From Pantanalinema sp. (GTDB taxonomy: Bacteria; Cyanobacteriota; Sericytochromatia; S15B-MN24; UBA4093), in the NCBI GenBank assembly GCA_036704125.1, contig DATNQI010000076.1, positions 27,157 through 91,156 on the forward strand: a stretch of DNA of 64,000 bases. The letters are read 5' to 3'. A model generated the notes under the pieces. That model worked only from the letters and a program-made list of their open reading frames with translations, was not told the DNA's origin and did not search any database. The position numbers were made by a program, and so were the translations under genes. Positions 3,235 through 31,563 of this stretch are shown piece after piece. How positions within the stretch are numbered: the stretch's first letter is position 1; each line of letters opens with the position of its first letter.

Positions 3235-4748
3235 CCCGACGGCTCCTCCTGTGCCTGCTTGCGCTCCCTTCGCTGACCGCGTGCCGCCAGGCCCCGCTCA
3301 CCCCCTCGACCCCGCGCCCGGCGCCTCAGGCGACGGAGCTCGGCCAGCTCCGGGTCACGGTCCGCTGGCCCGAGGCGAGCGCATACGCCCCCCAGGCCAT
3401 TCCGGAGGCGAGCGTCCGGGCCTACCTCTACGTCTCGACCGAGGGGGGGCAACCCCTGGGGACCGTGACCCTCGCGCGGAAAGAGGCCGGCTCGCTCGCG
3501 AGCGCCTCGATCGAACTGCCCCCCGGGGAAGGTTACACGCTCTCGGCGGTCCTCACGGAGCAAGGCGAACAGAACATCGCGCTCGGCGCCAGCGCTCCCT
3601 TCGCCATCCGGCGCGACCGCGCGACCTCGGTCTCGCTCCTCATGGAGCCCGTGATCGCGACCGTCGCGGGGACGGGCACCACCACCTACGACGCGACGGC
3701 CTCGACGGCCCTCGACACGACGTTAAGTGTCCCGTCGGGGCTGGGGATCGACGCGGCGGGCAACCTCTACGTGGCCGTCCTGAGCCACAACGTCATCCGC
3801 AAGGTCACCCCCGAGGGGCGGATCGGCACCGTCGTGGGCACCGGCACCGCGACCACCACCGACCTGGCCAACCTTGGCGACGGCGCCGCGGCGGGCGCGG
3901 CGACCCTCAACAGGCCCCAAGGCGTGGCGGTCTCGCCCACGGGGGATCTCGTCATCGCGGACACGAACAACAGGCGCCTGCGCCTCGTGCCGGCGAGCGA
4001 CGGGCGGCGCTTCGGGCAGGAGGTCCTGGCCGGCCGCATCTACACCATCGCGACCACGAGCCTCACCCCCAACGCCGTGACCCTGGGCCCGGACGGCAGC
4101 GCCTACTTCTCGGAAGGATCCAATCCGAGCAATCCGCCTCGCGTCACCCATCTGGATCCCGACGGACGGCTGAGCGTGGCCGCAGGGATCCAGGCGAGCC
4201 TCACCAATGGTGACGACCGCCCGGGGACGAGCACGGCGCTCGACACACCCGACGGCATCGTCGTGGATGCGCGCGGCAACCTGATGGTCGCGGACCGGGG
4301 CGCGCACCGGGTGCGCATGGTCTGCCGCGAGGCCGGGACCTACTTCGGCATCGCGATGCAAGCAGGACGCCTCTACACCATCGCGGGCACGGGCACGCCG
4401 ACCACCGGCGACGTCTCCCCTCTGGGCGACGGGGGACAGGGGCTCGACGCGAGCCTCAAGAGCCCGCGTGGCCTGACCCTCGACGCCGCAGGCAACCTCT
4501 ACATCGTGGACTCCGCCAACTGCCGGGTGCGATGCCTGAAGACGAGCGGCATCATCACCACGATCGCAGGAAATGCGATCGCCGCCGCCGCGGATAAGCC
4601 CGCTCTCTGGACCAACCCGCGCCTCGGCGACGGCGGCTCGGCGCTCAAGGCCCTGCTCAACTTCCCCGCCGGCACGGCCATCGGGCCGGGCGGGGCGCTC
4701 TACATCAGCGACACGCTAAACCAGCGGATCCGCAGGCTCTGGCTCTGA
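3231..4748 (+). CDS. NHL-repeat lipoprotein
   Basis: ATG at 3231 is in frame with ORF 2223..4748 and overlaps the upstream stop by 4 nt (ATGA). Lipobox LTAC, an Ig-like N-terminus resembling 8544..9503, then NHL repeats. Confidence 0.75.
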   Translation: MTRRLLLCLLALPSLTACRQAPLTPSTPRPAPQATELGQLRVTVRWPEASAYAPQAIPEASVRAYLYVSTEGGQPLGTVTLARKEAGSLASASIELPPGEGYTLSAVLTEQGEQNIALGASAPFAIRRDRATSVSLLMEPVIATVAGTGTTTYDATASTALDTTLSVPSGLGIDAAGNLYVAVLSHNVIRKVTPEGRIGTVVGTGTATTTDLANLGDGAAAGAATLNRPQGVAVSPTGDLVIADTNNRRLRLVPASDGRRFGQEVLAGRIYTIATTSLTPNAVTLGPDGSAYFSEGSNPSNPPRVTHLDPDGRLSVAAGIQASLTNGDDRPGTSTALDTPDGIVVDARGNLMVADRGAHRVRMVCREAGTYFGIAMQAGRLYTIAGTGTPTTGDVSPLGDGGQGLDASLKSPRGLTLDAAGNLYIVDSANCRVRCLKTSGIITTIAGNAIAAAADKPALWTNPRLGDGGSALKALLNFPAGTAIGPGGALYISDTLNQRIRRLWL

Positions 4749-23735: not shown

Positions 23736-25070
23736 ATGAAAAACAGCTCGGCCCTCGCGGCCACGGGATTGGTGAGCGTTCTCATGCTGGGCTCGGCCCC
23801 TGCAGCCTTCGCCCAGCATGAGGGGCACGCGGTGACACGTCCCGGGGGCGCGATCGCCCCTGGAGACCTGGCGCGAGATCCCGCCGACGAACTGATGCGC
23901 CGGACGAGCCTCATGGGATCGGGCACCAGCCTCCAGCCCGCCTCCTCGCCCATGTGGATGTGGCAGCAAATGACGGGGCCCTGGCTCCTCAGGACGCACG
24001 GGAACGCCGTTCTCGCCTGGAACCAGGGGACGAGGCCGCGCGGCACCGGCGAGCCGTCGCTCGCCAACTGGGCGATGATGATGGGCTCCCGGATCCTGGG
24101 CCCGGGGATCCTCGATTTGACGGCGATGGGAAGCCTCGAGCCCGCCACCATGCCTCCCGGCGGCACGCCGCAGCTCTTCCAGACGGGCGAGACCTACGGG
24201 GGACGGCCCCTCATCGATCGCCAGCACCCGCACGATCTCTTCATGGAGCTTTCAGCGCGCTACACCCTGCCCTTGAACGGGCGAGCCGCCGCCTTTTTCT
24301 ACGGCGCCCCCGTGGGCGAGCCCGCGCTCGGCCCCGTCGCCTTCATGCACCGCCCCTCGGCGGCGGACAACGGGCTCGCCCCGCTTGGCCACCACCTCCA
24401 GGACTCGACCCACATCACGATGGGCGTCCTGAGCGCGGGCCTGCAATGGGAGCACTGGCAAGTGGAGGGGTCGCTCTTCCGCGGCAGGGAGCCCGACGAG
24501 AACCGCTGGAACCTCGATCTGGGCCCCCTCGACTCCTGCTCCGGTCGCCTCAGCTATGCGCCGGGCCCGAACTGGGCCCTCCAGATCTCGAGCGGCCGTC
24601 TGAGCAACCCGGAGGCGCTCGAAGCGGGGGATCTCCGCCGTACCACGGCCTCGATCCAGCACAACCTGCCCCTTTCGCGGGGCAACTGGGCCACCGCCAT
24701 GATCTGGGGGCAGAACACCAAGTTCGGCCTTTCCCCGGCCCCGATCACGAATGGGCTGCTGCTCGAATCCACCCTGGACCTCGATCGCAACCACCTCTAC
24801 GGCCGCTTCGAGGCGGTGGACAAGACGGGCCTCCTCGCGAACCTCCCGGGCGGCGAGGCCGACGAGCGGATCGTGCGCCCGATCCAGGCCCTCACCCTCG
24901 GCATCATCCACGACCTGAAGCTTCAGCCCTTGGTCGTCGGGATCGGGGCGGATGCGACCCTCTACGCCCAGCCCGGAGATCTCGTGGCCCTGTACGGCAG
25001 CAACCCCATGGCCTTGCGGATCTTCCTGAGAATGCGCCCGCCTCTCATGGCGCACCGCTCTTCCCCCTGA
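23736..25070 (+). CDS. secreted protein of unknown function, co-oriented downstream of copZ
   Basis: 444 aa with signal peptide (…GSAPAAFAQ). Trp/Met-containing N-terminal region, then a long domain with alternating-polarity strands (possible beta-barrel). No motif recognised. Confidence 0.6.
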   Translation: MKNSSALAATGLVSVLMLGSAPAAFAQHEGHAVTRPGGAIAPGDLARDPADELMRRTSLMGSGTSLQPASSPMWMWQQMTGPWLLRTHGNAVLAWNQGTRPRGTGEPSLANWAMMMGSRILGPGILDLTAMGSLEPATMPPGGTPQLFQTGETYGGRPLIDRQHPHDLFMELSARYTLPLNGRAAAFFYGAPVGEPALGPVAFMHRPSAADNGLAPLGHHLQDSTHITMGVLSAGLQWEHWQVEGSLFRGREPDENRWNLDLGPLDSCSGRLSYAPGPNWALQISSGRLSNPEALEAGDLRRTTASIQHNLPLSRGNWATAMIWGQNTKFGLSPAPITNGLLLESTLDLDRNHLYGRFEAVDKTGLLANLPGGEADERIVRPIQALTLGIIHDLKLQPLVVGIGADATLYAQPGDLVALYGSNPMALRIFLRMRPPLMAHRSSP

Positions 25071-25093
25071 TCGTCGCACCCCACCGCTCGAAA

Positions 25094-25141
25094 AATATTA
25101 CCCGGGTAATATTGACTCCCTCAATATTACCCGGGTAATAT
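25094..25141. promoter_or_regulatory. two tandem perfect palindromes (putative operator) upstream of the DUF2239 gene
   Basis: AATATTACCCGGGTAATATT at 25094-25113 and AATATTACCCGGGTAATAT at 25123-25141. Centres are 29 bp apart and lie 30-60 bp upstream of the ATG at 25171. Confidence 0.55.
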
Positions 25142-25170
25142 CATGCCAACCATCGGAAAGGATCACGGAT

Positions 25171-25779
25171 ATGGACATGCAAGCGCACACGTACACGGCC
25201 TTCGGGGACACGCGCCTCGTCGCCACGGGCCCCATCGAGGAGGTGGCCCTCAGGACCAAGGAATGGCTCGAGCAGGGCGGGGTACCGGTGCTCATCTTCG
25301 AGGACAAGACCGGCCAGCAGCTCGATCTCGACCTCCGGGGCACCCACGACGAGGCCCTGGCGCGCCTTCGGTCGCACCCCTGGCTCCAGCAAGAGCAAGA
25401 AGAGAAGCGCACCGGTCCCGGGCGCCCCAAGCTCGGCGTCGTGTCGCGCGAGGTCTCGCTCTTGCCCCGGCACTGGGACTGGCTGAACGAGCAGCCGGGC
25501 GGCGCCTCGGTGACGCTTCGCAAGCTGGTCGAGGAGAAGATGAAGCAGAGCCAGGGCAAGGATCGCGCCCGCAAGTCCCGCGATGCCGCCTCCAAGTTCA
25601 TGTGGGTGGTGGGCGGCAATCTCCCCGATTTCGAGGAGGCCTCGCGCGCCTTCTCCCGCAAGGAATACGAGCGCTTCGACCGGCTGATCGAGGCCTGGGC
25701 GCCCGACGTCCGGGCGCACATGCGAAAGCTCGTGGCAACGGCCATTCAAGACGAGCAGGAGGCGGCAAATGAGTCTTAA
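25171..25779 (+). CDS. DUF2239-family protein
   Basis: 202 aa with an aaagga RBS. Overall resemblance to DUF2239 proteins, recalled from memory. ORF 25143..25772 in another frame and the antisense ORFs here are Arg/Gly-rich noise. Confidence 0.6.
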   Translation: MDMQAHTYTAFGDTRLVATGPIEEVALRTKEWLEQGGVPVLIFEDKTGQQLDLDLRGTHDEALARLRSHPWLQQEQEEKRTGPGRPKLGVVSREVSLLPRHWDWLNEQPGGASVTLRKLVEEKMKQSQGKDRARKSRDAASKFMWVVGGNLPDFEEASRAFSRKEYERFDRLIEAWAPDVRAHMRKLVATAIQDEQEAANES

Positions 25780-26134
25780 GGAAGAACTCAAGGCCGATTA
25801 CCGGCAGAACTGGCACCGGCTCAGGAAGATGGGCGTTTACCAGATCAAGAACCAGGTCAACGGCAAGGTCTTCATCGAGGCGAGCCTCAACCTCGACGGC
25901 GCGATCGCACGCGATCGCCTGTGGCTGCCCCGGGGCGGTCACCTCAACCACAAGCTCCAGCAGGACTGGAAAACGTTCGGGCCAGACGCCTTCACCTTCG
26001 AGATCCTCGAGACCCTGACGCCGACGGACGATCCGCGCGATTACGCGGGAGAGGTCGCGCTCTTGCTCGAGGTCTGGAAGGAGCAGCTCGAACCCTACGG
26101 CGACAAGGGTTACCTCTCGCCGCCGCGCCGCTGA
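25769..26134 (+). CDS. GIY-YIG nuclease-family protein
   Basis: GVYQIKNQVNGKVFIEAS…R…H…N is a GIY-YIG-like core. The start overlaps the DUF2239 stop by 11 nt. Confidence 0.65.
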   Translation: MSLKEELKADYRQNWHRLRKMGVYQIKNQVNGKVFIEASLNLDGAIARDRLWLPRGGHLNHKLQQDWKTFGPDAFTFEILETLTPTDDPRDYAGEVALLLEVWKEQLEPYGDKGYLSPPRR

Positions 26135-26160
26135 CCCCTCGATCCCACAGGAGACTCCCC

Positions 26161-27408
26161 ATGCCAAAACCCGCCAAGAGCCCCGGCATGCTCTTCATCT
26201 TCATCACGGTGCTGCTGGACATCGTCGGGATGGGGATCCTCATCCCCATCACGCCCCAGCTCGTCGCCCAGTTCGTGGGCGGCGATCTCTCGGACGCCTC
26301 GCGCTTCTACGGGCCCTCGATCGCCCTCTACACCGCGATGCAGTTCATGTGCGCCCCCATGCTCGGCGCGCTGTCCGATCGCTTCGGGCGCAAGCCCATC
26401 TTGCTGCTGTCGCTCCTGGGCACGGCGCTCGCCTACCTGATGACGGCCTTCGCCCCCAACCTGTGGTGCCTGTACGCCGCCCGCATGCTGGGTGGCATGG
26501 CCGGCGCCAGCATGACGGTCGCCACCGCCTACATCGCGGACGTCAGCAGCCCCGAGAACCGGGCCCAGAACTTCGGGATGCTGGGGGCGGCCTTCGGGAT
26601 CGGCTTCATCATCGGGCCGGCGCTCGGCGGGATGCTCGGGCACTTCAGCCTGCGGCTCCCCTTCCTCGTCTCGGCCGCGGTGTCGCTCATCAACTTCACC
26701 TACGGGCTCTTCGGCCTCCCCGAGTCCCACCGCCTCGAGAACCGCCGGGCCTTCACCTGGGCCAAGGCGAACCCGCTCTCCTTCGTCCCCATGCTCCGGA
26801 AGTACCCCCAGATCATGGGGGTGGTGGCGACCTTCATCCTGGTGGGGCTGGCGCAACAGTGCCAGCAGAGCAACTGGGTGCTGTACACCACCCTGCGCTT
26901 CAACTGGTCGCCGATCGAGACCGGGGCGTCGCTCGCGGTTGCGGGAATCTGCCTGGCCCTGGTCCAGGGCGGGCTGATCCGGGTGATCCTGCCCCGGCTC
27001 GGAGAAAAGCGGGCGATCCTGTACGGTCTTGCGCTCCTCGCGGTGTCGATGATGCTCTTCGGCTTCGCGACCCGGGGCTGGATGATGTACGCGGTCACGA
27101 TAGTCTCCAGCGTGGCTGCGATCGCGGGCCCCGCGGCCCAGGCCATCATCTCGCGCCAGGTCGGCCCCGAGGAGCAGGGCGCCATCCAGGGCTCGCTGAC
27201 CAGCCTCATGAGCCTGACGGGCGTCGTCGGCCCCATCGTTGCCAACCAGCTGTTCGCCACCTTCACCGCCGCCGCGGCCCCCATCCGGGTGCCGGGAGTC
27301 GCCTTCTTCCTCGCGGCGCTGCTCGTCGGGCTGAGCCTCGTGAACATGATCCGGTACTTCTCGAAGCAGCCGCAGGCGGCCGTGGCGCCGCAGCCCGCCC
27401 AGGTCTAA
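26161..27408 (+). CDS. MFS transporter (TetA/multidrug-efflux-like, 12 TM)
   Basis: ATG at 26161 has an aggag RBS. MFS motif A-like [11 protein letters not shown] and a polytopic profile. Confidence 0.85.
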
Positions 27409-27423
27409 GCTCTGCCTGAAACC

Positions 27424-27480
27424 TCCCCGCCCCCCGGTGGGGCGGGGTCGGGGGTGGGGGGTTCTAACCGCTCCGAGTCT
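27424..27480 (+). repeat. intergenic GC-hairpin repeat element, copy 1
   Basis: CCCCGCCCCcCGGTGGGGCGGGG hairpin followed by a gggggtgggggg…ccgctccgagtc tail. About 85% identical to 62896..62950. Confidence 0.65.
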
Positions 27481-27508
27481 CCAGGCGAGGGCATGAGGAA
27501 CTTGATTT

Positions 27509-27633
27509 TATCCCCCCACCCCTCACATCCAACAAAACCGGGCATGTGTTGTGGTGGCCGCTGTAAGCGGCTTGATGGAACAGTTTCGTTAGACGTTCCC
27601 CCTAGCCCCGCCCCACCGGGGGGCGGGGAATCA
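27509..27633 (-). repeat. reverse-orientation copy of the same element, interrupted by a ~75-bp insertion flanked by a 5-bp direct repeat (cccct)
   Basis: tatccccccacccct (27508-27522) and ctagccccgccccaccggggggcgggg (27603-27629) together form the reverse complement of the element. The intervening 27523-27602 is extra and contains its own stem GCCGCT-gta-AGCGGC. Confidence 0.5.
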
Positions 27634-27670
27634 AGCGGATGCCAATCTCAATTCGAGTCTGCTTGGCGGG

Positions 27671-28105
27671 CTACAGCAGGAAGAGCCCGCCGACCACGAC
27701 CAGCGCGGCGCCCACGATCTGCTTGGCGCTGAGGGTCTCCTTGAGGCCGAACACCCCGAACAGCATCGTCACGACCGGCGCCGCGCTGAACAGGAAGGGA
27801 AAGACCCGCGAGACGTCGGCGCGCTGCAAGAGCAGGTAGTAGCAGTACTGCGCGAGCAGCATCGAGGTGATCCCGCTCGCCAAAAACAGGCCTATGGCGA
27901 GCGGCGACATCTCCCGGACCATGCGGGCGCCCTTGCCGATGGTGAGCGCGAGCGGCAAGGCGATCGCCGAGACCCCAAGCGTTCGGATGGCGATCCCGAC
28001 CAGGGGCGAGGCCGAGAAGTGCGAAAGGGCCAGCTTGTCGAAGATGGGAATGAGCCCCCAGAGGAAGATGGTGACGAGGGTCAACAGGATCGTCTGAAGG
28101 CTCAT
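27671..28105 (-). CDS. small EamA/DMT-like membrane protein
   Basis: 144 aa, 4-5 TM. A half-size EamA domain. Confidence 0.55.
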   Translation of the reverse strand: MSLQTILLTLVTIFLWGLIPIFDKLALSHFSASPLVGIAIRTLGVSAIALPLALTIGKGARMVREMSPLAIGLFLASGITSMLLAQYCYYLLLQRADVSRVFPFLFSAAPVVTMLFGVFGLKETLSAKQIVGAALVVVGGLFLL

Positions 28106-28127: not shown

Positions 28128-28388
28128 CTACTTCTTCGAAGCGGGCTTCATCTCGGTCTTCTCGAGATTCATCTTGCACTTCGGGCAACGGCCGGGCTTG
28201 TCCGAGACCACGTCGGGGTCCATGGGACAAGTATAGACCACCACCTTGCCCGCAACCTGCTTGCCGTGCTGATGGGAGTGCGCCGCCGGCTTGCCCTGAG
28301 GTGCCGGGGCCGCCCAGCCGGGAGCGCTCGTGAGCAGGATCGCCCCGGCGAGCACGCTCAGGGTCAACAGGTTACGCTTGAAGGTCAT
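28128..28388 (-). CDS. periplasmic heavy-metal-binding protein (YTCPMxP…CPxC motif domain, CusF-like accessory)
   Basis: Signal peptide, then VYTCPMDPDVVSDKPGRCPKCKMNL. The same motif domain is fused to the N-terminus of CusB at 31560..32882. Confidence 0.65.
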   Translation of the reverse strand: MTFKRNLLTLSVLAGAILLTSAPGWAAPAPQGKPAAHSHQHGKQVAGKVVVYTCPMDPDVVSDKPGRCPKCKMNLEKTEMKPASKK

Positions 28389-28422
28389 GGATGGGGTTCC
28401 TTTCGTCAAAAGGGCGCGAAGG

Positions 28423-31400
28423 TCAGTGCTCCAGGCCGGACGGGACGAGCGTCCCGCGCTTGAGCTGCCGGGTCTTCCAGAGGGTGAAGAGGACGGGGAT
28501 CACGATCAGGACGAGCACCGTGGAGGTGAAGAGCCCGCCGATCATGGGAGCCGTGATCGGCCTCATCAGGTCAGATCCGGTTCCCTGACTCCACATGATA
28601 GGCATCAGGCCGATGAAGTCCACTGCCACCGTCATCAGCTTCGGTCTCAGACGGAAAACAGCCCCCTCCATCGTCGCCGTTTCGATGTCGGCCGGGGTGA
28701 TGGCGCCCCCCAAAAGCATCCGGTCAAGGGCCTCGTTCAGGTACACGAGCATGACCACGCCCGTCTCGACGGCGACCCCCGCCAGCGCGATGTAGCCGAC
28801 CCAGACGGCGACGCTGAAGTTGTAGCCGAGCACCTTCTGGAGCACGAGCCCCCCGATCAGGGCGAAGGGGATGGAGAGCACGACCATCGCCGACGAGGCC
28901 AGCGACCGGAAGGTCAGGTACAGGAAGAACAGGATGACCGCGAGCACGATCGGCACCAGGACGCGCAGCCGCGCGGCCGCCCGGCTCTGGTTCTCGTACT
29001 GGCCGCTCCAGGAGAGATAGGTCCCCTTCGGCAGCTCGAGGTCGCTAGAAAGGCGCGCCTTCGCCTCATCGACGAAGCTGCCCATGTCCCGGCCTCGGAC
29101 GTTCAGGAACACGATCGAGCGCAGAAGACCGTTCTCGCTGTTGATCATCGGAGCACCCGTCGTCAAGCGCACGTCGGCGAGCTGGGAGAGGGGGATCTGG
29201 GCGCCCGTGGGCGTGGGCACCAGGATGCTTCCGAGGGACTCGGGGTCCCCCCTCAGCTCCCGGGCGTAGCGGACCCGCACGGGGAAGCGCTCGCGGCCCT
29301 CGACGGAGGTGGTGAGGTTCATCCCGCCGATGGCCGTCTCGATGACGTCCTGGACGTTCTCCACCATCAGGCCGTAGCGGGCGATCGCCTCCCGGTTCGG
29401 GGTGATGTCCACGAACCGGCCGCCGATGACCCGCTCGGCGAAGACGTCCTGGGCCCCCGGGATCCCCTTCAGGATGCCCTCGGCCTTGACCGCCAGGTGC
29501 TCCAGCTCGCGCAGGTCCGAGCCGTAGATCTTCAGGCCGAGATCCGTCCGGACGCCCGTGGCCAGCATGTTGATCCGGTTGATGATGGGCTGGGTCCAGC
29601 CGTTGCTGACGCCCGGGATCGAGAGCTTATGGTTCATCTCGGCGATCAGGTCGTCCTTGGGCTTGCGCGGGTCGGGCCACTCCGAGCGCGGCTTGAGGTT
29701 GATGATCGTCTCGATCATGCTGACCGGCGCCGGATCGGTGGATGTCTCGGCGCGTCCCACCTTGCCGAGCACCGACTCCACCTCGGGGAAGGCGCGCAGG
29801 ATCTTGTCCTGGACCTGCAGGATGCGCTTGGCCTCGGTGATGTTCACGTCGGGCAGGGTGGTCGGCATGAAGAGCAGGCTCCCCTCGTCGAGCGGGGGCA
29901 TGAACTCGTTTCCGATGCTCATGGCGAGCGGCACGCTCAAAACGACGCTCGCCACGGCCAGACCCACGGTCATCTTCTTGAAGCGAAGGGCCGTCGTGAG
30001 CACGGGCTTGTAGAGCCGGATGAAGAAGCGCGAGACGGGGTTCTCCTCCTCGGGCCGCACCCGGCCGCGCAAGAGGAAGCTCATGAGCACCGGGACGACG
30101 GTGATGGCGATGACGGCCGCCCCCGCGATCGCGAAGCTCTTGGTGAAGGCCAGGGGATGGAACATCTTCCCCTCCTGCCCCTCGAGCATGAAGACCGGCG
30201 TGAAGGAGAGCAGCACGATGAGCAGCGAGAAGAAGATGGGTCGCCCCACCTGCTTGGCCGAGACGATCACGGTCTCGAGGTAGTCCGGCTCCTCACCCGC
30301 CTCCCGCTGCTCGGCCAGGTGGCGGTACGCGTTCTCGACCATGACGATGGCGGCGTCCACCAGCACGCCCACGGCGATCGCGACCCCGCCCAGGCTCATG
30401 ATGTTGCTGGTGATGCCGAACTGGCGCATCAGGATGAAGCTCACCAGCACCGCGACGGGCACCGAGAGGACGATGATGAGCGCCGAGCGGATGTGGAAGA
30501 GGAAGGCCAGCACCACGAGGCTGACGATGACCGCCTCCTCGACCAGCGCCTCCTTGAGGGTGTCGACGGCGCGCTCGATGAGATCCGAGCGGTCGTAGGC
30601 CGCATGGACGCTCACGCCCGCGGGCAGGCCCTTCTCGAGCTCGACGAGCTTCGCCTTGACCCGGTCGATGACCGCCTTGGCGTTCTCGCCGTGGCGCATC
30701 ACGACGATGCCGCCGACGACCTCGCCATCGCCGTTCTTGTCGAGGACCCCGCGCCGCGTCTCGGCGCCAAGCTGGACGCTCCCCACGTTGGCGATCGTCA
30801 CCGGGATGCCGCCCGGAGCGGTCTTGACGACGATCTTCTCGAGGTCGGAAGCGCTCTGGATGTAGCCCCGGCCCCGGACCGAGTACTCGGCCGCGTTCTG
30901 CTCGACCAGGCCGCCGCCCACCTCGTTGTTGCTCATCCGGACGGCATCCGCCACTTCCTTCAGGCTGACGCCGTAGGTGAAGAGCTTGGCCGGATCGACC
31001 TCGATCTGGTACTGGCGGACGAAGCCCCCGATGGAGGCCACCTCGGCGACGCCCGGCACGCTCTGGAGCTGGAGGCGCAGGTACCAGTCCTGGATGGCGC
31101 GCAGGCGGCCGAGATCGAGGCCCTTGCCCTCGACGGTGTACCAGTAGACGTGGCCCACCCCGGTCCCGTCGGGACCGAGCGCCGGGGTCACCCCGGCGGG
31201 GAGGTTGCCCGACACCGAGGCCAGGCGCTCCAGGATGCGGGTCCGCGCGAAGTAGAGGTCCGTCTTGTCGTCGAAGATCACGTAGATCATCGAGAAGCCG
31301 AAAGCCGAGCTGGCCCTTACCGCCTTGACGTCGGGCAGCCCCTGGAGGCTCGCCGAGAGCGGGTAGGTGATCTGGTCCTCGATGACCTGCGGGCTGCGCC

Positions 31401-31563
31401 CCGGCCACTCGGTGAAGACGATGACCTGGTTCTCGGACAGGTCCGGGATCGCATCCAGCGGGGTCCGGGTGATGGACCAGGTGCCCCAGCCGATCAGGCC
31501 GACCAGCGCGATGATGACGATGAAGCGGTTGCGAACCGACCATTCAATGATGCGCTCGATCAT
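28423..31563 (-). CDS. cusA: CusA/CzcA-family heavy-metal efflux RND permease
   Basis: 1046 aa with the HME-RND signature and a 12-TM plus large periplasmic-loop architecture. Start overlaps the cusB stop (ATGA). Confidence 0.95.
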   Translation of the reverse strand: MIERIIEWSVRNRFIVIIALVGLIGWGTWSITRTPLDAIPDLSENQVIVFTEWPGRSPQVIEDQITYPLSASLQGLPDVKAVRASSAFGFSMIYVIFDDKTDLYFARTRILERLASVSGNLPAGVTPALGPDGTGVGHVYWYTVEGKGLDLGRLRAIQDWYLRLQLQSVPGVAEVASIGGFVRQYQIEVDPAKLFTYGVSLKEVADAVRMSNNEVGGGLVEQNAAEYSVRGRGYIQSASDLEKIVVKTAPGGIPVTIANVGSVQLGAETRRGVLDKNGDGEVVGGIVVMRHGENAKAVIDRVKAKLVELEKGLPAGVSVHAAYDRSDLIERAVDTLKEALVEEAVIVSLVVLAFLFHIRSALIIVLSVPVAVLVSFILMRQFGITSNIMSLGGVAIAVGVLVDAAIVMVENAYRHLAEQREAGEEPDYLETVIVSAKQVGRPIFFSLLIVLLSFTPVFMLEGQEGKMFHPLAFTKSFAIAGAAVIAITVVPVLMSFLLRGRVRPEEENPVSRFFIRLYKPVLTTALRFKKMTVGLAVASVVLSVPLAMSIGNEFMPPLDEGSLLFMPTTLPDVNITEAKRILQVQDKILRAFPEVESVLGKVGRAETSTDPAPVSMIETIINLKPRSEWPDPRKPKDDLIAEMNHKLSIPGVSNGWTQPIINRINMLATGVRTDLGLKIYGSDLRELEHLAVKAEGILKGIPGAQDVFAERVIGGRFVDITPNREAIARYGLMVENVQDVIETAIGGMNLTTSVEGRERFPVRVRYARELRGDPESLGSILVPTPTGAQIPLSQLADVRLTTGAPMINSENGLLRSIVFLNVRGRDMGSFVDEAKARLSSDLELPKGTYLSWSGQYENQSRAAARLRVLVPIVLAVILFFLYLTFRSLASSAMVVLSIPFALIGGLVLQKVLGYNFSVAVWVGYIALAGVAVETGVVMLVYLNEALDRMLLGGAITPADIETATMEGAVFRLRPKLMTVAVDFIGLMPIMWSQGTGSDLMRPITAPMIGGLFTSTVLVLIVIPVLFTLWKTRQLKRGTLVPSGLEH

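Follow-up and report, generated by a model that had tools for sequence, protein, structure and literature searches.

Tandem palindromes conserved at DUF2239 promoters across many bacterial phyla point to DUF2239 as their probable autorepressor

Two closely spaced palindromes lie directly upstream of a DUF2239-family gene in a 64,000-nucleotide stretch of a Pantanalinema contig (the whole of this stretch is referred to here as the window), and the same palindrome stands at the promoter of the DUF2239 gene, or of the operon that contains it, in 77 of 80 loci drawn from many bacterial phyla. In the window, the elements are built into the predicted promoter of a three-gene operon whose other members specify a small stand-alone protein of the GIY-YIG fold and an efflux transporter of the major facilitator superfamily (MFS). 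Taken together, the position of the palindromes, their conservation, and an equally invariant segment within the DUF2239 protein suggest that DUF2239 is probably the cognate DNA-binding autorepressor of these tandem operators.

The arrangement of the two elements in the window (O1 and O2, Table 1) is that of an operator pair embedded in a promoter. Their centers are 29 bp apart, as a preliminary description of this DNA had stated; that description also called both of them perfect 20-bp palindromes, which is true of O1 but not of O2, where 19 of 20 positions agree and only the 18-bp core is perfect. The −35 hexamer of a sigma-70-like promoter starts with the final two T residues of O1, and its −10 hexamer falls within the right arm of O2. 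This promoter is the sole match of its kind in the scanned interval 24800–27800 (1 found versus 0.2 expected). Furthermore, the O1 palindrome (up to three mismatches) had no match in 100 dinucleotide-preserving shuffles of the window, and the 12-mer core TTACCCGGGTAA (up to two mismatches) occurs nowhere in the 64 kb beyond O1 and O2. At the level of sequence, these features support reading the duplicated palindrome as an operator-type element within a sigma-70-like promoter.

Table 1. Positions of the operators, the promoter, and the genes of the operon and its surroundings, numbered from the first nucleotide of the window.
Feature	Position	Strand	Basis
Operator O1, AATATTACCCGGGTAATATT, perfect 20-bp palindrome	25094-25113	.	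Sequence inspection
Operator O2, AATATTACCCGGGTAATATC, 19/20 palindrome with perfect 18-bp core ATATTACCCGGGTAATAT	25123-25142	.	Sequence inspection
Sigma-70-like promoter: TTGACT 25112-25117, 18-nt spacer, TAATAT 25136-25141	25112-25141	+	Consensus prediction
DUF2239 gene, 202 aa	25171-25779	+	Pfam PF09998, E=1.9e-68
Invariant module GPGRPKLGVVSREVSLLPRHWDWLNEQPGGASVTLRKLVEE, codons 82-122, putative DNA-binding segment	25414-25536	+	Invariant columns
GIY-YIG-fold gene, 121 aa, stand-alone	25769-26134	+	Family profile, AlphaFold 2 model, Foldseek
Tet(A)-like MFS efflux transporter, 415 aa	26161-27408	+	NCBIfam NF012174, E=3e-106; Pfam MFS_1
HMA-domain protein	23261-23533		
Gene immediately upstream, 444 aa	23736-25070		
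HMBD protein	28128-28409	-	
CusA-like RND pump	28423-31563	-	

The comparative set comprised 80 DUF2239 loci of 8 kb from a contig collection holding one genome per species, and included Sericytochromatia, Myxococcota, Acidobacteriota, Planctomycetota, Hydrogenedentota, Bdellovibrionota, Chloroflexota, Desulfobacterota, Chlorobi-type bacteria, Verrucomicrobiota, Armatimonadota, Limnochordia, and Alpha-, Beta-, and Gammaproteobacteria. Within the region from −200 to +30 of the DUF2239 start, the motif TACCCGGGTA (up to two mismatches) was present at 73 of the 80 loci. With at most one mismatch allowed, 94 sites fall in the 18.2 kb of upstream sequence versus 12 in the remaining 617 kb, an enrichment of ~265-fold, and even among these 12 “background” sites, seven sit in four further loci, 5′ of the gene that heads a DUF2239-containing operon. 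An MFS gene heads two of those operons (both in Bdellovibrio-type loci) and an AAA_33 kinase-like gene heads the other two; three of the four loci carry a tandem pair within the one-mismatch cut-off, and the fourth (L035) has a single site. Adding these four gives the total of 77. At least two sites are present in 57 loci, with successive sites most often 28 bp apart (23 cases), followed by 27 bp (16), 29 bp (5), and 26 bp (4), and TTGAC directly continues the 3′ end of the first site in 45 of 59 tandem loci, the same junction as in the window. The logo built from 147 sites reads AATTTTACCCGGGTAATATT, with an invariant CC/GG center flanked by AT-rich arms.

Judged from these sequence comparisons, the element is a conserved promoter–operator cassette and not a dispersed repeat. 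The preliminary description had considered that the palindrome might be scattered through the genome independently of the adjacent genes; an element of the REP (repetitive extragenic palindromic) or MITE (miniature inverted-repeat transposable element) type was rejected, given only two copies in the 64 kb and a motif that is concentrated at DUF2239 promoters in related loci. The operator signature proposed in the same description has, in contrast, gained ground, both from its overlap with the only predicted promoter and from its conservation before DUF2239 operons in many phyla. What is new is that the operator is nearly invariant across phyla; the regulatory logic itself is classical.

It is informative to consider which protein reads this operator. 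The absence of a helix-turn-helix (HTH) regulator next to the palindrome had been remarked on previously, but the comparative evidence probably points to DUF2239 itself as the binder. No gene other than DUF2239 is shared by all loci; its neighbors vary. MATE and MFS transporters are the commonest partners, with MatE pumps at between 14 (Pfam census) and 26 (BLAST clusters) of the 80 loci; DSBA-like proteins neighbor DUF2239 at 8–19 loci, mostly in the Bradyrhizobium group; and MFS pumps, a divergent GST, a histidine kinase, dienelactone hydrolase, kinases, and others make up the remainder. The window protein is a full-length member of the family, matching PF09998 over profile positions 1–181 of 182 at 230 bits against a cut-off of 25. 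From an alternative start at 25177 its translation is 100% identical to a 200-aa database protein (P0001) from a metagenome-assembled genome labelled Pantanalinema, whose nearest relatives are Sericytochromatia-type genomes.

Within the DUF2239 alignment, the invariant residues cluster at positions 82–117, in a 45-residue core with the motif GPGRPKLG..RE.SLLPRHW.WL..QPGGAS..LR.LV. In the layout predicted by AlphaFold 2 (AF2; predicted local distance difference test score, pLDDT, 84), this central module lies between an N-terminal alpha/beta domain (residues 7–67) and a C-terminal helical domain. Residues 80–94, which form the arm bearing the GRP motif, are disordered in the AF2 monomer (pLDDT <50), and the arm is followed by a short helix (99–107), a GG-A-S turn, and a long helix (111–148). 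The core also occurs by itself: a 432-aa metagenome protein (L092:6912-8210) has the core alone (Pfam profile positions 70–123) at its N-terminus, joined to an APH/choline-kinase-type phosphotransferase domain, and the gene for this fusion sits directly 3′ of the palindrome. The core hence behaves as a portable module. A 60-aa module search of 1.84 billion representatives returned only canonical ~200-aa proteins among the 150 matches listed, and so linked the module to no DNA-binding family already known. Because DUF2239 is the only constant neighbor, and because its core alone, fused to a kinase, stands behind the same palindrome, it is likely to be an autorepressor. Furthermore, an invariant protein segment matched by an invariant operator is what one expects of a cognate pair, and since the invariant basic module pairs with an invariant operator lying over its own promoter, autoregulation is the best explanation of the pattern. 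A tandem operator over the promoter of a regulator's own gene is the usual mark of autoregulation.

The fold of the putative DNA-binding segment is less readily named. The GRP motif resembles an AT-hook, and the succession of helix, G-x-S turn, and helix could fit either a ribbon-helix-helix (RHH) or an HTH protein; in the model, an HTH-like reading (helix 99–107, PGGA turn, helix from 111) is just as possible as an RHH one. Several results weigh against DUF2239 as the palindrome-binding protein. The central module matched only DUF2239 in Pfam at E-values up to 10; a profile search of the PDB with DUF2239 gave no RHH or otherwise relevant match (the hits were weak and non-significant: PtpB at E=0.11, and for the N-terminal domain the Smr match described below); hhalign against 13 hand-typed RHH sequences gave P=0.13, aligning only the GGAS turn and the second helix; and Foldseek returned no match below E=2.8 for the monomer model. 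Given the negative Pfam, PDB-profile, and hhalign searches, we put forward the RHH assignment only as a hypothesis. Likewise, covariation between operator and protein lends no support, as both are too invariant, and the loci with deviant operator centers (L068, L073, and L044) show no matching change in the module. Lastly, ~60% of 120 metagenome stretches selected by the exact 16-mer TATTACCCGGGTAATA have neither DUF2239 nor a GIY-like gene nearby, and an equally conserved but distant regulator would be compatible with comparisons made on 8-kb loci.

This last point leads to the strongest alternative, namely that the palindromes are operators of some other transcription factor, unlinked to DUF2239 and conserved just as widely, with the DUF2239 and GIY-like genes as mere targets. 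Such a factor would fit with the lack of any known DNA-binding domain assignable to DUF2239, and with a GIY-like gene in Bradyrhizobium that bears the site but is unlinked, which implies a factor acting in trans. We nonetheless regard this alternative as unlikely. It needs a second protein with the phyletic pattern of DUF2239, and it has to contend with DUF2239 as the only constant gene at the 77 loci, with the invariant basic GRP module standing alone behind the palindrome in the kinase fusion, and with a tandem arrangement typical of autoregulation.

With DUF2239 taken as the autorepressor, we infer a mechanism that extends to palindrome binding, the sign of regulation, the stoichiometry of the dimer, the inducer, and the role of the GIY-like protein. 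A DUF2239 dimer would bind each 20-bp palindrome through the invariant central module, and occupancy of O1 (over the −35 hexamer) and O2 (over the −10 hexamer) would turn off its own operon in a classical autorepression. A signal sensed by the N-terminal alpha/beta domain or by the C-terminal helical domain would then release repression and induce the GIY-like protein and the efflux pump encoded on the same transcript, together with unlinked targets bearing this site in other genomes. The sign of this regulation is proposed because the operators overlap the promoter, which is its sole basis, and the single O1-type site that abuts the −35 hexamer of the GIY-like promoter in Bradyrhizobium could in principle serve activation rather than repression. 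As for the signal, the partner genes suggest xenobiotics, electrophiles, or antibiotics: they encode MATE and MFS pumps, DSBA-like proteins, GST, dienelactone hydrolase, and kinases.

Two further observations on DUF2239 may be recorded here. For residues 6–95 (window 25171–25400), which include the N-terminal alpha/beta domain, the Smr domain of N4BP2 (2vkc) is a weak, non-significant profile match (E=0.41), with the conserved DLDLRGT..EAL of DUF2239 aligned with the LDLHG..EAL motif of Smr. In the literature searched, we found no mention of DUF2239, PF09998, or IPR018715, and the motif strings appeared only in primers and cloning sites, never as an operator. COG4321 may be the same family as DUF2239. 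In Brucella abortus (BAB1_1219/1220), a COG4321-annotated gene is ~4.8-fold up with erythritol, and the adjoining DJ-1/PfpI gene is induced 13–20-fold (PMC3522698). If COG4321 is indeed DUF2239, the erythritol induction in Brucella would constitute the only expression data for the family.

The metagenome stretches selected by the exact 16-mer show where else the site may be found. The site is at the start of DUF2239 in 25–29 of the 120 and at a GIY-like gene in 17 (family hidden Markov model, E<1e-4). Many of the matches with neither gene are probably due to chance, given the size of the collection. Nine human-gut contigs (L086, L105, L113, L119, L125, L167, L189, L193, and L199; GC ~0.37) have the 16-mer 23 nt 5′ of the same 263-aa gene with no DUF2239 nearby, probably a single chance occurrence in a common gut species that was sampled repeatedly. 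Soil contigs resembling Bradyrhizobium carry a longer form of the palindrome, such as CCATATATTACCCGGGTAATATATGG, which lies 15–110 nt past the stop of a gene of 380–700 aa (L161:3416-3455, L109:2817-2856, L103:2760-2799, L126:7790-7829, and L163:505-544) and, where rpsL is on the contig (L161, L103, and L126), ~600–750 nt 5′ of an rpsL-rpsG operon that also includes fusA in L103. This is a third recurrent context, in which the palindrome may be either a regulon site or a hairpin. In addition, one soil contig (L118) has two inverted copies of the palindrome with the GIY-like promoter and gene, 1.9 kb apart (1373-1388 and 3239-3254), which may represent an inverted duplication or an artefact of assembly.

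We turn next to the second gene of the operon. In the window, as previously described, the end of DUF2239 overlaps the start of the small gene that follows, the overlap from its ATG to the DUF2239 TAA (25777–25779) being 11 nt, and the MFS gene, which is probably the third of the operon, begins 26 nt past the GIY-like stop, with no terminator-like site predicted on this strand in 24800–27800. The MFS protein scores below the equivalog cut-off of NF012174, and its gene is not conserved even within the close clade, where L001 has a convergent mutS instead. The preliminary description raised the question of whether DUF2239 and the GIY-like gene are conserved as a pair, and here the answer is mixed. 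The adjacent pair occurs in only 2 of the 80 genome loci (L001 and L002, with an identical operator layout), and the closest homologues of both proteins also share contigs, down to ~57–60% identity; adjacency is confined to this Sericytochromatia-like clade. Elsewhere, however, GIY-like genes recur behind the same palindrome in other arrangements. Besides the overlapping order of the window clade, there are loci in which the operators are followed by the GIY-like gene, a MarR-like gene, and then DUF2239 (L089 and L168), loci in which the GIY-like gene diverges from DUF2239 across the operator (L087 and L117), and the unlinked 110-aa GIY-like gene of Bradyrhizobium, which follows a single perfect AATATTACCCGGGTAATATT fused to TTGACG. 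In this last case, which was confirmed in DNA not selected for the motif (two complete genomes and a soil contig), the site lies ~60–70 nt 5′ of the GTG start (L207:2915-2945, with equivalents in L206 and L208) and the gene is flanked by ParA-like/htpX genes on one side and apt/trpG on the other; DUF2239 is present in Bradyrhizobium as well, with tandem sites of its own (for example L034, L036, and L040). Because GIY-like genes stand repeatedly behind the same palindrome, including in the unlinked case, they look like recurrent members of the regulon, and the functional link with DUF2239 appears to be real.

The assignment of the small protein to the GIY-YIG family, made earlier from sequence alone, is correct at the level of the fold. 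By itself the 121-aa sequence has no Pfam match and only a sub-threshold NCBIfam match, yet 11 of its 26 relatives match PF01541, and the family profile aligns with the whole catalytic domain of I-TevI (1ln0/1mk0) at E=4.5e-13. The AF2 model (pLDDT 91.5) has these same structures as its top Foldseek matches (E 1e-5 to 3e-5, probability 1.00) and superimposes on I-TevI with a template modeling (TM) score of 0.80–0.84 and a root-mean-square deviation of 2.1–2.8 Å, which places it within the fold. The protein amounts to the catalytic domain alone, with one additional helix at its N-terminus and neither a linker nor a DNA-binding domain. The catalytic residues have fared less well. In I-TevI numbering, the GIY tyrosine Y6 is kept (GVY; Y in 23 and F in 4 of 27 family members), as is H40 (23/27). 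Y17 is replaced by F (F in 16, W in 6, L in 4, and Y in 1 of the family) and G19 by E (F-I-E; G in 11/27), so that the second motif is absent from the window copy. R27 is replaced by A, with an Arg three residues later in 20/27; the metal-binding E75 by L, with a Glu in the adjacent column in 15/27; and N90 by L; for these three positions the alignment may be shifted by 1–3 residues. Because several catalytic residues are substituted, nuclease activity is uncertain, and the protein may act as a co-regulator or sensor instead. A DNA-acting or stress module, as suggested earlier, may be a reasonable reading; the commonest partners are efflux pumps, and the GIY-like domain has several of its canonical catalytic residues replaced.

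The architecture of the window operon also brings to mind a type II toxin-antitoxin pair, with DUF2239 as a DNA-binding antitoxin and the GIY-like protein as a small nuclease toxin. The regulator gene is first, the nuclease-fold gene overlaps it, and palindromes cover the promoter; moreover, in Firmicutes the GIY-like gene is likewise overlapped by an upstream gene encoding a GerE HTH and DUF2087. However, we find this explanation improbable. DUF2239 is without a GIY-like neighbor in 78 of the 80 genome loci, mostly accompanying efflux pumps; in Bradyrhizobium the GIY-like gene follows the operator by itself, within core-genome synteny (htpX, apt, trpG); gene order varies to include GIY-first and divergent forms; several catalytic residues are substituted; and both sequence and operator are kept across phyla, unlike those of mobile toxin-antitoxin loci. 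An obligate module of this type was rejected on its co-occurrence (2/80), its four arrangements, and its unlinked copies. The overlapping homologues themselves come from Sporomusa, Fontibacillus, and a metagenome-assembled genome labelled Methylocystaceae (L201:3219-4366, L204:3255-4411, and L203:3706-4363), where a DUF2087 gene overlaps the 5′ end of the GIY-like homologue; full-length versions of DUF2087 have a Zn-ribbon-like N-terminus and a GerE/LuxR HTH, and the TACCCGGGTA motif is not present at these loci, the Firmicutes examples included. Because of these overlaps, transcription factor-like proteins of unrelated families seem to be habitual partners of the small GIY-like protein.

Two ideas survive less well. 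One is that the GIY-like protein reads the palindrome, for instance by cutting or nicking DNA specifically at the CCCGGG-centered site. Some GIY-YIG enzymes do cut GC-rich palindromes, such as the restriction enzyme Eco29kI at CCGCGG, and GIY-like genes are enriched beside the exact 16-mer (17 of the 120 metagenome stretches), many of them with no DUF2239 nearby. We nevertheless consider it very improbable and have rejected it, as this bare catalytic domain has no DNA-binding domain, five of its catalytic positions (Y17, G19, R27, E75, and N90) are substituted in the window copy, no methyltransferase gene is adjacent, and 78 of 80 palindrome-bearing DUF2239 loci lack a GIY-like gene within 4 kb. 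The least probable idea, hardly to be credited, is that the palindromes act as nucleic acid, either as a DNA cruciform or as an RNA hairpin by which the upstream gene's transcript is terminated or stabilized: the pair starts 24 nt past the stop of that gene, plus-strand RNA spanning O1 and O2 would form a 21-bp hairpin (−39.1 kcal/mol, z=−5.6), and a minus-strand terminator-like site is called there, but no U tract follows on the plus strand, no minus-strand gene ends at the palindromes, the upstream gene differs among loci, and what is conserved is sequence (the CC/GG center and the embedded −35 and −10 hexamers) and not pairing, with no compensatory changes seen, for which reasons an intrinsic terminator was rejected.

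The surroundings of the operon include genes associated with metal resistance, namely an HMA-domain protein and, nearby on the opposite strand, an HMBD protein and a CusA-like RND pump (Table 1). The gene immediately upstream of the palindromes encodes a protein with a signal-peptide-like N-terminus and no Pfam or NCBIfam match.

Returning to DUF2239 as the probable autorepressor, a broader proposal can be made, which we advance tentatively and would not yet favor over its negation. DUF2239 might found a hitherto unrecognized family of bacterial transcription factors present in many phyla, with a new or highly divergent DNA-binding module (a GRP minor-groove arm and an HTH-like hairpin), a 20-bp operator AATWTTACCCGGGTAAWATT and a tandem cassette kept nearly unchanged from Sericytochromatia to Proteobacteria, and a small stress regulon of efflux pumps, detoxification enzymes, and a degenerate stand-alone GIY-YIG protein as possible co-regulator or sensor. 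The novelty would lie in assigning a family of this kind as a regulator, with a DNA-binding module that matches no known fold. Pairs of transcription factor and operator that are conserved in sequence across many bacterial phyla are few; NrdR, HrcA/CIRCE, and in part LexA are examples, and each has proved a useful regulon marker. The proposal would give a concrete, testable function to a Pfam family of roughly a thousand 50%-identity clusters, and would tie an exact DNA site both to efflux pumps of the multidrug type and to the stand-alone GIY-YIG proteins, themselves an orphan family. If it is true, motif scans would reveal the regulon, hint at the inducing stress, and annotate thousands of “hypothetical” genes.

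It is also worth comparing the proposed system with known ones. The GIY-like protein is most like the I-TevI catalytic domain, which it matches over the whole domain by profile and structure, with the GIY tyrosine and H40 retained; it differs in the extra helix, in the missing linker and DNA-binding domain, and in the substitutions described above, and is associated with neither introns nor phage. DUF2239 shares with RHH repressors (Arc, Mnt, CopG, omega, and the ParD-type antitoxins) a basic N-terminal arm that leads through an extended segment into two helices, the first of them short, joined by a G-x-S turn, as well as often-tandem palindromic operators over its own promoter and a regulator gene in first position. 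However, it is without demonstrable profile or structural similarity to them, the alternation of hydrophobic and polar residues in its putative strand fits Arc or CopG poorly, it is a protein of ~200 aa with additional N- and C-terminal domains, and its operator is nearly invariant across phyla.

Units of the TetR/TetA type likewise combine a local regulator, promoter palindromes, and an adjacent efflux transporter, for which the Tet(A)-like MFS protein of the window and the MATE pumps of other loci would be the counterparts. In contrast to these, DUF2239 has no TetR_N HTH (PF09998 is its only Pfam match), and the DUF2239 and pump genes are co-directional in one operon and not divergent. Perhaps the most suggestive parallel is with lexA-dinF of Escherichia coli, where an autorepressor has two tandem operators, a MATE transporter is encoded in the same operon, and the GIY-YIG gene cho belongs to the regulon. 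The system proposed here also has two operators, a putative autorepressor, a MATE partner, and a GIY-YIG-fold gene in the regulon. DUF2239 differs in having no S24 peptidase or winged-HTH domain by Pfam, and its MATE neighbors score nearer to generic and NorM models than to DinF. By this resemblance, the inducing signal may instead be DNA damage.

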